Positions 38,537-44,472 of a stretch of 64,000 nucleotides of DNA are shown here, piece by piece. The stretch's first letter is position 1. Every line of letters begins with the position of its first letter. This DNA is from Longimicrobiales bacterium (GTDB taxonomy: Bacteria; Gemmatimonadota; Gemmatimonadetes; Longimicrobiales; Gaopeijiaceae), in the NCBI GenBank assembly GCA_965226375.1, contig CBDDCX010000008.1, forward strand, positions 1,344,001-1,408,000, in the 5' to 3' direction. The translations under genes and the position numbers were made by a program. The notes below the pieces were generated by a model. That model searched no databases. It saw only the letters and a list, made by a program, of their open reading frames with translations, and had not been told where the DNA came from.

Positions 38537-38938
38537 TCATGCGCCCTCTTCTTCCTCGGCCGGCTCCTCGGGGGCTGCCTCGGCTTCCAGCCCCACGGAC
38601 CGCTCGACACTCTTGACCCTTTCCTTGAGCCCGTCCACGACACCCCTCAGGCTGTCGAATTCCTTCTGTTTGACGAAATCGAAGGCCTCCCTGGCCTCAC
38701 CGGCTCTCGCCTGCGCTTTCTCCAGCGTCGTGCGCATGACCTCTTTGGCCCGCTCGGGTGAGAGATCACCCCGCTCCTTGGCTTCGTTGAGGGGCTCCTC
38801 AATGGCGTCCTTCATCGCATTGAGCATACCAAGGCCTTGACGAATGCTGCCCTTGATACCGTCTGTTCGGCTCTGCTCTTCCGAGTCCTGCTCGGTTCCC
38901 GAGCCGTCGTTTCCCTCAGGAGTGTTCTCTTCCGACAT
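38537..38938 (-). CDS. Phasin-like (PhaF/COG3937-like) coiled-coil protein
   Basis: Pattern GLG......K..IEE...E..ERGDLS.E.AK plus C-terminal E...L...V..L..RV..VE. Confidence 0.55.
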   Translation of the reverse strand: MSEENTPEGNDGSGTEQDSEEQSRTDGIKGSIRQGLGMLNAMKDAIEEPLNEAKERGDLSPERAKEVMRTTLEKAQARAGEAREAFDFVKQKEFDSLRGVVDGLKERVKSVERSVGLEAEAAPEEPAEEEEGA

Positions 38939-40811: not shown

Positions 40812-41273
40812 ATGCGCTTACGAGATTTTGTTCGAGCTGATTCGATGCTATGCGGATTCCGAGCCGGCTCGCGTGACGATACCATCGGGCTGTTGGTCGA
40901 GACACTGGTGAGCCGTGGACTGATACAGAATGAGTGGGACGTAAAAAACCGGCTTATACGTACCGAGGATGTGCACACCACAGCCATCGGCAATGGGGTC
41001 GCGATTCCTCACGCCACCGTCGAGGGTTTAGGGGGAACGCTTCTCATGGTGGCCGTTTCGGGCCACCCCGTGACGTTCGGACCGGCGGAAGTCGAGACCT
41101 GTTCCGTGTTCTTCCTACTCCTTTCTCCACCCAACAGGGGAGGTGAGCACATCCGGATTCTGGCCAGGATAGCACGACTGGCGTCCGACCCATCCGCCGT
41201 AGAGCGTCTCCGGTCTGCCGGCTCGGAAGAGCTCCTGGTGGAAGCGTTGCAGGTAATGGACGACCGACGCTGA
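40812..41273 (+). CDS. PTS EIIA (Ntr/fructose-type) domain protein
   Basis: TTAIGNGVAIPH phospho-His motif; FLLLSP.....HIRILARIARL; start ATG at 40812. Confidence 0.9.
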   Translation: MRLRDFVRADSMLCGFRAGSRDDTIGLLVETLVSRGLIQNEWDVKNRLIRTEDVHTTAIGNGVAIPHATVEGLGGTLLMVAVSGHPVTFGPAEVETCSVFFLLLSPPNRGGEHIRILARIARLASDPSAVERLRSAGSEELLVEALQVMDDRR

Positions 41274-41283
41274 TGACCATGCC

Positions 41284-41637
41284 ATGCACCTACTAGTCGC
41301 CGTCGTCAACGAGCCCGAGAAGTTGGACGAAATCCTGTCGGGGTTCGTGGAGCTCGGAGTGCGTGGCGCAACCGTCATCAAGTCGGAGGGCATGGGCCGA
41401 GTCCTTTCGCACGACATTCCGATCTTTGCCGGCCTCCAAACTCTCATCGATCGATCTCGGCCGCAGAATCGCACCATCTTCACCGTATTGGATGATGATC
41501 TGGTGGAAGCGGTGATCGTGCTCTTCCAGGATATTTGCGGTGATCTTGAAGATCCCGCCACGGGCATCCTGTTTACACTCCCGTTGGATCGTGTGGTTGG
41601 ACTCTCCGCTACGGAGTTGGGCGAGCAGCCGGAGTAG
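41284..41637 (+). CDS. P-II superfamily (GlnB-like) signalling protein, non-canonical
   Basis: 117 aa; GVRGATV..SEGMG, and TGILF.LP....VG resembling the P-II B/C-loop region; contains no Tyr. Confidence 0.75.
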   Translation: MHLLVAVVNEPEKLDEILSGFVELGVRGATVIKSEGMGRVLSHDIPIFAGLQTLIDRSRPQNRTIFTVLDDDLVEAVIVLFQDICGDLEDPATGILFTLPLDRVVGLSATELGEQPE

Positions 41638-41644
41638 ACGGTCC

Positions 41645-42967
41645 ATGGATCCTCTCCTGGCCACCCTCATTCTCATTCTCTTGGCCCTCTTGGGGGCTCG
41701 CTTCTCGTTTTCCACAGATAACGTGCCGGCGGGGCCGCGACTGCTCTTCCGCACGGGAACGCACTTCATCTTCGTGGGCTTCGTGCTTGGACCCTCGATG
41801 ATGGGGTTCGTCACCACCGACGCCCTCGAAGACCTGTTCCCTTTCGTGGCACTCGGCCTCGGATGGGTGGGGCTGCTTTTCGGGCTCCAATTCGAGCGGG
41901 ACGCTCTAAAGGCGTTTCCGGGCAGGCTGCACCTGTTCGCTGCGGGCCAGGCGCTCCTCACCTTCGTCGTCCTTGCGACCGCGGGGATCGTAACTCTCCG
42001 AGGGCTGGGCTTAGGCGGCCCGAACGAGGTACTCCTGGTGCTGTTGGCGGCAGCCACGGCGTGCATCTCGGCCCCGGCGGGAATCGCCATCATCTCGTCC
42101 AACTTCCTGGTCCGGGGTCCCGTCCGTGAGATGCTGCTGTTCGTGGCATCTATGGACGCCCTTATCGGGATCACCGTGCTCCAGATCATCTACTCGAGCT
42201 ACCACGCGGAGGGAGTCCTCGATTTCCTCGGTGACATTCCGCCACCCGTTTGGACCCTGCTGGCCGTGGGTATCGGGGTTCTTTGCGGAATCATCTTCGT
42301 CTGGCTGACGAGAAGCCGCCCAGGCGTTGAGGAGTTGGTCCTGTTTCTCATGGGCATCACAGCCTTCGCCGCCGGGACCGCGCTTCAACTGCAGCTGTCA
42401 CCACTCTTCGTTTGCCTGGTCATGGGCGTGGTCGTGGGCAACCTCGTCCGCGATCCTCGGAGGGTGTATGGCGTCATGGCCAGGTGGGAGAAGCCGGTCT
42501 ATGTGGTCCTCCTGATGCTCGCTGGGGCCCTCCTCCGTTTTCCATCCGTTTGGATCGTGCCGCTCGCCTTCGGTTACGCGGTGCTCCGTGGGGGCGCCAA
42601 GATCCTGGCCTGCGGTGTCCTGGTGCGGATCGGGAGACCGGGATTTGCGACCCCGGCCTTCCTCGGGCTCGGTCTCGTTCCACAGGGCGGACTCTCGCTC
42701 GCCATGGCCCTGTCCGCCTTTCTGACCTTCTATGGACTCGAGGTAGCCGGCGTGAACGTAGGAGAGGCCCTGTTCAGCGTGGTCGTTCTGGGCGTCGTGA
42801 TCTCCGAGTTGGTCGGCCCGGCGTGTACGACCAGCACGCTGCGGCGCGCCGGTGAGATCTCCCCTCGTGTCGAAGAAGCCCTGGCGCTGGGCGACGACGA
42901 GCAGGCCCGGGCTCACGCCGTTCGGCACACTCCGGGTGATGGTCGGGGCGCCGATCTGGAACTGTGA
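41645..42967 (+). CDS. Cation:proton antiporter (CPA2/Na_H_Exchanger-like)
   Basis: About 12-13 hydrophobic segments; G.VLGP, GLQF, SPLF...V.G, GLGLVPQGG...A, E.VGP motifs. Confidence 0.8.
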   Translation: MDPLLATLILILLALLGARFSFSTDNVPAGPRLLFRTGTHFIFVGFVLGPSMMGFVTTDALEDLFPFVALGLGWVGLLFGLQFERDALKAFPGRLHLFAAGQALLTFVVLATAGIVTLRGLGLGGPNEVLLVLLAAATACISAPAGIAIISSNFLVRGPVREMLLFVASMDALIGITVLQIIYSSYHAEGVLDFLGDIPPPVWTLLAVGIGVLCGIIFVWLTRSRPGVEELVLFLMGITAFAAGTALQLQLSPLFVCLVMGVVVGNLVRDPRRVYGVMARWEKPVYVVLLMLAGALLRFPSVWIVPLAFGYAVLRGGAKILACGVLVRIGRPGFATPAFLGLGLVPQGGLSLAMALSAFLTFYGLEVAGVNVGEALFSVVVLGVVISELVGPACTTSTLRRAGEISPRVEEALALGDDEQARAHAVRHTPGDGRGADLEL

Positions 42968-42991: not shown

Positions 42992-43558
42992 ATGGTCCAT
43001 AGACTTCTTTTCCCCGCCTTGCTGCCCATTCACGGCACAACGCAGGCGCTCGCACCGCCGGGAGGCTTGCAAGTCACAGCCGATATCTCGGCCGTGGTCC
43101 TCGCCGCGATTTCCGCGCTCCTGCTGCTGGCGATGTTGTTGTTGCTCGTCCAACTCCGGAAAGTGCTCGCCGCCCTTCAGCGGCAGATGCAACCGGTAGC
43201 CGATCGAGCCAGGGTGGCCGCCGAGAACGTGGAGTACATCTCGGCCGTGGTCCGCGAGGACGTGCAGAAGGTCCACTCCTCCGTTGCGGGGTTGTCGGAT
43301 CGGCTGAAGGACGCCTCCGAGCGAATGGAGGAGAGGGTCGAAGAATTCAACGCTCTCATGGACGTGGTGCAGGACGAAGCCGAATCCGTCTTGCTCGATA
43401 CCGCCGCTGCGGTCCGTGGGGTGCGTGCGGGAGCCAGAACCATAGGGGAGGGTATGGCCCGGCAGGACTCGGAGGGCGACTCGCCCGAGGACGGAGGGTC
43501 GGCGGACTCCGTCGAGGCGGAAGGAGCGATGGTCCCCGGAGACGCCGAGAGCGCGTGA
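42992..43558 (+). CDS. Membrane-anchored coiled-coil protein (DUF948-like)
   Basis: Single TM (SAVVLAAISALLLLAMLLLLVQLRK) followed by heptad repeats. Confidence 0.65.
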   Translation: MVHRLLFPALLPIHGTTQALAPPGGLQVTADISAVVLAAISALLLLAMLLLLVQLRKVLAALQRQMQPVADRARVAAENVEYISAVVREDVQKVHSSVAGLSDRLKDASERMEERVEEFNALMDVVQDEAESVLLDTAAAVRGVRAGARTIGEGMARQDSEGDSPEDGGSADSVEAEGAMVPGDAESA

Positions 43559-44472
43559 AGACCGTATGGGCCTTCTCGGTGGCGCTCGCTTGGCTTGCCC
43601 TCGATCCTGAACCGCTGTTCGCCTGGGGGCCCGGCACTCACATCGCCCTCGGCGAAACCCTTCTCGCGTCCTTGTACCTGCTCCCACCGGCCATCAGGGC
43701 GATCATCGAGGCTCACCCGCTCCACTTCCTGTACGGATCCATCGCAGCCGACATCTCCTTTGCCAAGAAGTACGTGCCCGAAGGCAGGCACTGCCATCAC
43801 TGGCCTGTAGGAGAGGAGATCCTGGCCACGGCGGACAGCCCGCATCTGACCTCGGTCGGCTACGGCTACCTCGCCCACCTGGCCGCAGACACGATCGCCC
43901 ACAATTTCTTTCTGCCCCGGCAACTGCTTACCACGAGCACGACGCAGGCTCTCGGACACGCCTACTGGGAGCACCGCATGGACATGCACGTCGGCGAGCA
44001 GTATCTGACCAAAGCCAGACACCTGGTGGTGCAGCATGACCACTCCGAAGCGGACGCGCTCTTCGATGAAGTTCTGAGCAGTACCATCTTCAGCTTTCAG
44101 ACCAATCGGAGAATCTTCCGCGGCATGATCCGCTTCAGCGACCACGACCGTTGGAAGCAAGTGTTCGACCAAGTCTTGAAGAAGTCTCGCTTCGACCTGC
44201 CGCCTGCCGCGGTCGAAACGTACCAGGCTCTTTCGTTCGAGTATCTGGTCGACTACCTGGTTTCACGCGACAGATCCCGTCCGGGCACACTCGACCCCAC
44301 GGGCGAACTCAACTTGAGGCTGGCGAAGAAGGTACGTCGCCTTACGATGGCCCGAGGCGGGGCTGGCGATCCGACTCACCTGCTCGAGAGCGCTGACGAG
44401 TTCTTTCCCCTGCCCCACGACGCACTGATACACTGGCCCGAACGAGAACGGATGGTGGCGATCAGCGACTGA
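43555..44472 (+). CDS. Secreted Zn-dependent phospholipase C / S1-P1 fold protein
   Basis: Signal peptide ending LFA|WGPGTH; GSIAAD, GYLAHLAAD..AH and H..WE Zn-ligand motifs; GTGA overlap. Confidence 0.85.
   Translation: MKTVWAFSVALAWLALDPEPLFAWGPGTHIALGETLLASLYLLPPAIRAIIEAHPLHFLYGSIAADISFAKKYVPEGRHCHHWPVGEEILATADSPHLTSVGYGYLAHLAADTIAHNFFLPRQLLTTSTTQALGHAYWEHRMDMHVGEQYLTKARHLVVQHDHSEADALFDEVLSSTIFSFQTNRRIFRGMIRFSDHDRWKQVFDQVLKKSRFDLPPAAVETYQALSFEYLVDYLVSRDRSRPGTLDPTGELNLRLAKKVRRLTMARGGAGDPTHLLESADEFFPLPHDALIHWPERERMVAISD

Follow-up and report, generated by a model that had tools for sequence, protein, structure and literature searches.

An EIIA/PII-like/antiporter module with a divided ion-binding motif

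In this work, we describe a module of three adjoining genes in a 64,000-nucleotide stretch of the genome of a Longimicrobiales bacterium (GenBank assembly GCA_965226375.1, contig CBDDCX010000008.1, positions 1,344,001 to 1,408,000; G000:C8:1344001-1408000 in our own numbering), referred to below as the window. The genome comprises 4.2 Mb and is 90% complete. The three genes encode a stand-alone EIIA protein of the phosphotransferase system (PTS), a non-canonical PII-like protein and a membrane protein of the cation/proton antiporter (CPA) superfamily. This module is real, widespread and uncharacterised. Its antiporter, called here type a, probably lacks the essential ion-binding aspartate of the superfamily, as judged from aligned sequences, and is accompanied in almost all genomes that carry it by a paralogue, type b, which retains it. 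By a small balance of probability, we consider that one electroneutral cation/H+ exchanger is built from a and b, with transport by b and a structural or regulatory role for a, on which the EIIA/PII-like pair acts as an optional switch.

The EIIA gene (40812-41273, + strand) encodes 153 amino acids (aa) of the Fru/Ntr type with the phospho-histidine H67. It is followed after 10 nt by the gene of the PII-like protein (41284-41637, +), a 117-aa member of an unnamed subfamily whose nearest relative (93%) lies in a Longimicrobiales (Gemmatimonadota) genome, and after a further 7 nt by the CPA gene (41645-42967, +), encoding 440 aa with an NhaA fold. The neighbours on the opposite strand are murA upstream and gatB downstream. 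This arrangement agrees with an earlier note on this DNA, made from the letters alone, and the three families named there (PTS_EIIA_2, P-II and Na_H_Exchanger) were each found above their cut-offs. PF00359 gives 78.4 bits (cut-off 27) and places the first protein in the PTS Fru/Mtl/Ntr class; PF00543 gives 34 bits (cut-off 25); and PF00999 gives 36.9 bits (cut-off 26.2).

The split motif of the antiporter

The CPA motif was defined by Masrati et al. in 2018; according to the accessible part of that paper (PMC6181914), Asp7 is 94% conserved and essential, Asp6 pairs with Lys8, and CPA1 proteins carry Glu at position 5 and Arg at position 8. We set the register by aligning profiles and by a joint MAFFT alignment with no gap in the helix, both based on sequence rather than coordinates. 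In this register the window CPA is predicted to have D171 at position 6, A172 at position 7 and K319 at position 8. An initial reading of D171 as the ion-binding aspartate was dropped on these alignments. Among 63 close type a orthologues, the Asp7 position (NhaA D164, NapA D157) is occupied by Ala in 54, Gly in 8 and Ser in 1, and never by Asp (0/63). Across all type a rows, Asp6 is present in 40/48 and Asp7 in 1/48, position 8 is mostly Lys or Arg, and Asp6 is also gone from 6 of the 14 distant rows.

Type b proteins show the complementary pattern. Asp or Glu stands at position 7 in all 25 rows, Asp6 in none (0/25) and Lys8 in 5/25, while 17 of the 25 have Lys at position 6; the K-D pair of type b is aligned to D156-D157 of NapA, the best-aligning solved sequence. 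They also keep the S-P motif of transmembrane helix 4 and an ATSP motif like that of NapA. The two single-gene CPA relatives examined have the full D-D and K (2/2); one protein of this single-gene type, at locus L154, falls outside the b clade. The loss of Asp7 from type a, set beside its retention as Asp/Glu in type b, suggests that the window protein is probably the half of a heterodimer that does not transport and that serves as a docking site for regulators. Complementary loss of this kind is the residue expected when a homodimer is subfunctionalised into a heterodimer.

The model of type a comprises an NhaA-fold membrane domain with a short helical tail (predicted local distance difference test score 87.7) and matches MjNhaP1, SOS1 and NapA at Z 32-33 over ~370-390 aligned residues, which together with the PF00999 match supports its place in the superfamily. 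With V167 at position 5 and K319 at position 8 it is not a CPA1 protein; the lack of Glu5 and the basic residue at position 8 assign it to CPA2. D171, E282, R315 and K319 are invariant in all 63 Longimicrobiales-type orthologues. Pfam gave no match to an RCK or CorC domain in the window CPA, which bears out the earlier description of a transporter without RCK, and when the window CPA or alignment A3 was searched by sequence against the solved structures, no meaningful match was returned.

Pairing of type a with type b

The type b partner of the window CPA is encoded on another contig (G000:C6:330231-331565) and scores 296 bits with the b profile and 52 bits with the a profile; in this genome, a and b are thus unlinked. 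In an even set of 121 genomes of the phylum, where four type a hits coinciding with a b-like locus were left uncounted, a and b occur together in 42, a alone in 1, a b-like gene alone in 7 and neither in 71. Type b is therefore present in 42 of the 43 type a genomes, in tandem in 27 and, from the coordinates, on separate contigs in 15. A second sample consisted of 48 of the 80 genomes behind the first PII loci. When type a was present at the locus (36 genomes), a b match was found in 34 and a close b orthologue in 29 (at least 327 bits, 46-88% identity). When it was not (12 genomes), close b orthologues were absent (0/12), a separate tandem a/b pair being present in 5 and neither gene in 7. 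In a tree of 49 rows, the type a sequences form a single clade (100/100) with a long stem, and their subtrees are mirrored by three b subtrees. A weak search of longer proteins found no a-b, a-EIIA or a-PII fusion, its two long matches having PF00999 only.

On this basis, a and b very probably act as one transporter. That they do so as a physical heterodimer replacing the usual CPA homodimer seems reasonably likely, and to a similar degree we lean towards a division of labour in which b, having kept Asp7, moves the ion by electroneutral exchange and a, without it, is structural or regulatory.

Another gene was seen beside type b: a cation diffusion facilitator (PF01545 + PF16916) directly follows the type b CPA at L211:4573-5529 (G000:C6), with the same order at L248, and a similar gene lies downstream of type b in genome G114.

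The EIIA and PII-like proteins

The AIPH histidine reported by the earlier note is H67, which 62 of 63 aligned EIIA orthologues retain. The protein scores below the PtsN equivalog cut-offs (TIGR01419, 50.2 against 138.7 bits; PRK10896, 46 against 221 bits), and PtsN proteins are its closest solved structures. Because the genome encodes the phospho-donors HPr and EI, both above cut-off, and has no match to the EIIC family PF02378 (at 90% completeness), the window EIIA is likely regulatory rather than sugar-transporting. Further EIIA domains occur in the same genome. Two proteins of ~700 aa (G000:C5:42322-44526 and C7:598956-601079, the latter on the - strand) have a C-terminal PF00359 EIIA domain and an N-terminus that looks by eye like an amino-acid permease, and so provide more links between transporters and EIIA. 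A weak EIIA-like N-terminal part without AIPH, fused to a CBS pair, is encoded downstream of sucCD-like genes (L212:2568-3457, G000:C8:1114531-1115460).

The PII-like protein belongs to the PII superfamily by its PF00543 match and by its fold, whose scores are tied among canonical PII, PotN, SbtB and PstA (Z ~12). Its gene is the sole PF00543 match in the genome. At 23 bits, the protein does not reach the GlnB and GlnK equivalog cut-offs of 202 and 181. T30, G36 and G38 are kept in all 49 PII-like sequences. We take the canonical residues for 2-oxoglutarate and ATP to be Q39, K58, K90 and R101/R103, and the modifiable tyrosine to be Y51. In this numbering, the protein has no equivalents of Q39, Y51, K58, K90 or the RxR motif, with V40, T53, Q61 and I95 aligned. 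A diadenylate cyclase is encoded in the genome, which bears on the idea of a c-di-AMP sensor like DarA/PstA; the structural match to PstA (Z 11.2) is level with those to other PII folds, and the sequence match is weak (E 0.08). A search for Amt genes in the genome (90% complete) gave none. A profile search (E up to 1e-10) placed 483 clusters at 50% identity in the subfamily. Two unusual architectures were met among PII-like proteins: a fusion to PilZ domain(s) in P0275 and, in the three-member Bacillota cluster P0169, a PII-like domain behind a PrmC methyltransferase.

We consider it probable that EIIA and the PII-like trimer are one sensing unit, in which EIIA is phosphorylated from the EI and HPr of the genome.

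Conservation of the trio in Gemmatimonadota

A search with the PII protein confirmed 195 loci; the 80 best of them were used, and five of these were dropped at contig ends. At 58 of the 75 judgeable loci, the trio is intact, 41 times as in the window and 17 times with a nitrilase and a NadE-like gene after it, so its arrangement is not due to chance. EIIA is missing at 5 of the remaining loci, CPA at 5 and both at 7. The PII subfamily occurs in 28 of the 121 phylum genomes and, within the family to which the window's genome belongs, in 1 of the 9 others, a patchy distribution. Type a is absent from 10 of the 28 genomes with PII, and EIIA stands beside PII in 16 of the 27 that could be tested. 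The presence of EIIA follows that of the antiporter pair: a and b are found somewhere in 15 of the 16 genomes with EIIA and PII, versus 2 of the 11 with PII only. In the 48-genome set, EIIA is kept with a and b even when unlinked (4/5 versus 1/7).

In the families f10 and f11 (L109-L118), the order EIIA-PII-a-b stands in an unrelated neighbourhood at 8 of 10 loci, with a following directly or nearly so. The module is thus conserved and is carried as a whole into unrelated surroundings; conservation of the gene neighbourhood was one of the checks named in the earlier note.

Distant loci and other partners of the EIIA-PII pair

The distant set consisted of 80 metagenome loci, or 72 clusters at 90% identity. 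EIIA adjoins PII at 64 of the 71 testable loci, and the phospho-histidine motif is kept in all 63 that were checked. One natural EIIA-PII fusion, P0233, occurs among the 150 clusters listed, so that fusion, also raised in the earlier note, does occur; a weak search of longer proteins gave no others (four matches, with no EIIA domain listed). An antiporter lies next to PII at 30 of the 50 testable loci: a CPA within 3 kb at 24 and a following Mrp operon at 6. The other 30 of the 80 loci could not be judged; per cluster, there is a CPA in 19, Mrp in 4, neither in 20, and 29 are not judgeable. In view of this adjacency and these neighbour counts, EIIA-PII is the tightest unit, and its commonest neighbours are cation/proton antiporters of two unrelated families.

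The Mrp cases (L177, L191, L199, L207, L208 and L210, two of them from Spirochaetales) have PII, or PII with EIIA, directly upstream of Mrp subunits with MnhE, MnhG and MnhB matches, which makes the pair a possible regulator of Mrp antiporters as well. The order of the genes also varies: EIIA-PII-a-b was found at metagenome loci, one of them from Candidatus Aminicenantes, a single CPA followed by EIIA and PII in Candidatus Tritonobacter, and PII-EIIA-mrpE in Spirochaetales. On a Subdoligranulum plasmid, PII is directly 5' of a single CPA, with no EIIA, and in an Acetoanaerobium record PII lies downstream of a DcuC-family gene. Elsewhere (L132, L138, L161, L170 and L188; L142, L143, L145-L147 and L159), EIIA-PII precedes a CLC protein with CBS or a Ser/Thr kinase with a PEGA domain, three of these labels resting on Pfam and the rest on likeness.

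Weighing of the explanations

A precedent for control of a CPA by an EIIA exists in Escherichia coli. As described in the accessible part of PMC11808508, unphosphorylated PtsN inhibits the K+/H+ antiporter YcgO/CvrA, a CPA1 protein. It binds the CorC domain of YcgO, while the phosphomimic does not (PMC11808508; bioRxiv 10.64898/2026.08.14.744764, likewise available in part). By analogy, unphosphorylated EIIA of the module would bind and inhibit the antiporter, and the PII-like protein would take the place of the CorC adaptor that is lacking here. The regulators would dock on a, which fits the fact that they stay with a where a and b are split. That the sensing unit tunes the antiporter is, on balance, the better supposition. 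A predicted complex of a (residues 1-430), three PII and EIIA, with PII taken as the partner, scored 0.40, and a control in which the transporter had been exchanged scored 0.42, a result that counts neither for nor against direct contact. Na+/pH control is slightly favoured as the role of the antiporter, given the NapA-like ATSP motif of b and the EIIA-PII pairs before Mrp operons.

We hold more tentatively, at clearly less than an even chance, a fuller version of this reading. In it, the CPA is an obligate heterodimer whose motif was split by an ancient duplication; b moves the ion, and the pseudo-antiporter a docks the PII-like trimer and EIIA. The status of phosphoenolpyruvate/pyruvate and a small ligand would thereby be coupled to Na+ or K+/H+ exchange in many uncultivated phyla, and the same pair would be re-used on Mrp antiporters.

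Several findings weigh against the favoured reading. As to the split motif, a one-residue shift of the helix in the ungapped register would turn D171 into the ion-binding aspartate. The pairing counts come from related genomes and are not independent (Fisher tests overstate significance on account of this relatedness and carry no weight here), the 327-bit threshold was picked after the scores were seen, and many genomes (e.g., G134, G136 and G141) have a second, more distant b-like CPA at 33-36% identity. Similarly, 11 of the 15 genomes with EIIA, PII, a and b come from two related families. The regulators and the transporter are also found apart: PII stands alone at 4/75 loci and without CPA at 12/75, no antiporter is nearby at 20 of the 50 testable distant loci, where the neighbours include kinases, CLC proteins and housekeeping genes, and type a occupies the same locus without EIIA or PII at all four such loci fetched (G001, G033, G040 and G066). 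As this PII subfamily has no match in 25 of the 43 type a genomes, the regulators are accessory to the transporter. Moreover, PtsN acts through the CorC domain, which the window CPA is without. Finally, PII gating seems restricted to trimeric transporters, according to the accessible part of a review (PMC10710835), and CPAs such as YcgO are dimers; a restriction of this kind makes it less likely that a CPA dimer is gated directly in any simple way.

These results also revise two proposals of the earlier note. It had presented the trio as a self-contained three-part system, whereas the transporter probably needs a second paralogue and is itself likely without the essential ion-binding Asp. The two small proteins were suggested there to replace the RCK domain; such a replacement is not obligatory, considering the type a genomes without PII and the 10/28 PII genomes without the transporter.

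Among the other explanations, the one that survives best, and which we still find unlikely, is that EIIA and the PII-like protein signal together as a general pair, have other targets or several of them, and share the antiporter operon in order to be expressed jointly with it when ions or pH cause stress, with no direct gating. The closeness of the pair (64/71) set beside the lack of an antiporter within reach at 20/50 loci, the retention of PII alone in several lineages and the a/b pairs without this PII (25/43) speak for it. It accounts less well for the position of the pair before two unrelated antiporter families, and for the way in which EIIA retention follows a and b even when they are unlinked (15/16 versus 2/11; 4/5 versus 1/7).

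It is quite improbable that the window CPA works by itself as a homodimeric K+/Na+ exchanger under the gating of the two small proteins, b being an independent paralogue. The charged core of D171, E282, R315 and K319 is evidently under selection (63/63), and a and b are unlinked in the genome studied here; but b accompanies a in 42/43 genomes, 27 times in tandem, and where unlinked it is lost along with a (0/12). The motif losses of a and b are complementary, and 6/14 distant a rows are without Asp6 too. We assign a similarly low probability to the idea that the a/b pair is no longer an antiporter and works as a channel-like uniporter, or as an ion or pH sensor signalling through EIIA and the PII-like protein. 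The full motif is found in neither paralogue (Lys6 in 17/25 and Lys8 in 5/25 b rows; no Asp7 in a), and the stem of type a in the tree is long. Against this, Asp/Glu7 is kept in all 25 b rows together with the S-P motif, and a/b persists without the signalling proteins in most of the Gemmatimonadaceae-level genomes in which it occurs. 

Glutamine-dependent NAD synthetase is known to be controlled by PII, and a nitrilase-family (CN_hydrolase, PF00795) gene with a short NadE-like gene, which is apparently degenerate and labelled by eye with no Pfam match, lies between the CPA and DUF948 genes of many relatives (e.g., L012:6668-8190). Regulation of this gene pair by the PII-like protein is very improbable all the same: the two genes follow at 30/75 loci, in 8 of them directly after PII without CPA, but they are absent from the window and from the other 45 loci and do not follow PII in f10/f11, and the PII-like protein is without the canonical 2-oxoglutarate residues.

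Neighbouring genes of the host locus

The earlier note described a run of three co-oriented genes. The trio is indeed contiguous, but the run comprises five genes, as it continues with a gene for a DUF948-like membrane-anchored coiled-coil protein (42992-43558, +; PF06103 22 bits, under the cut-off of 37.2) and a gene of the Zn-dependent phospholipase C family (43555-44472, +; PF00882 57.6 bits), these two overlapping by 4 nt. The DUF948-like gene is likely co-transcribed with the trio; a scan for promoters and terminators gave no signal above shuffles. We assign both genes to the host locus rather than to the mobile module, because they are absent where EIIA-PII-CPA-CPA stands in another neighbourhood (f10, f11). 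Specifically, no DUF948-like gene was detected beside the module in the L109-L118 loci or the metagenome loci, and the phospholipase gene remains at the locus after loss of EIIA, PII or CPA. On the other side, in the interval between murA and rimP, the window contains a small conserved coiled-coil open reading frame (38537-38938, -) with a weak BMFP match (16.6 bits, under cut-off).

Significance and comparison with known systems

Should the favoured reading be true, the module would represent an undescribed way to build and control a cation/proton antiporter, and would serve as an experiment of nature on what Asp6, Asp7 and Lys8 do, a matter of long argument. Type a would be a CPA pseudo-transporter subunit, of which the literature searches found none in print. 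PII gating would extend beyond trimeric transporters, the unnamed PII subfamily would gain a function, and PTS control of ion balance would be found outside Proteobacteria. A test of the three window genes without the type b gene of contig C6 would probably give a false negative.

The earlier note knew of no characterised counterpart. Control of a CPA antiporter by EIIA is, however, already known from PtsN-YcgO, as are PII gating of transporters and an antiporter made of two paralogues; it is their combination, together with the division of the motif, that appears to be new. Neither the module nor the split motif nor a heterodimeric CPA was found described in the literature searched, outside which lay most subscription journals and all supplements (that of PMC6181914 may cover these sequences), and the accessible part of PMC2405797 mentions no antiporter, P-II or PII.

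To our knowledge, the CPA antiporters with solved structures are homodimers with an ion-binding Asp in every subunit.

The closest likeness is to PtsN-YcgO, where a stand-alone Ntr-type EIIA with an intact phospho-histidine likewise meets an antiporter of the CPA superfamily. YcgO, a homodimer of the CPA1 class, carries RCK and CorC domains and has an ion-binding Asp in each subunit (bioRxiv 10.64898/2026.08.14.744764), whereas the system described here is a split a/b pair with no cytoplasmic domain; its EIIA, in turn, is co-encoded with the antiporter, falls under the PtsN cut-off and has a PII-like partner. The NapA-type CPA2 antiporters share with type a the NhaA fold, the lack of Glu5 and Lys8 (PMC6181914). 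In contrast to them, the Asp6-Asp7...Lys8 motif is divided here between two co-occurring paralogues, and a has hydrophobic or small residues around its lone Asp6. UmpAB, a Na+(Li+,K+)/H+ antiporter, consists of two paralogous membrane proteins and is functional only as a heterodimer (PMC5484666); it is of the DUF1538 family, unrelated to CPAs, and the accessible part of that paper does not mention P-II or PII. With GlnK-AmtB and SbtB-SbtA, the module has in common a PII-fold protein co-encoded with a membrane transporter (PMC10710835, accessible part). The transporters of those two systems are trimeric and match the PII trimer, while the PII-like protein of the window has no canonical ligand residues and is found without Amt.

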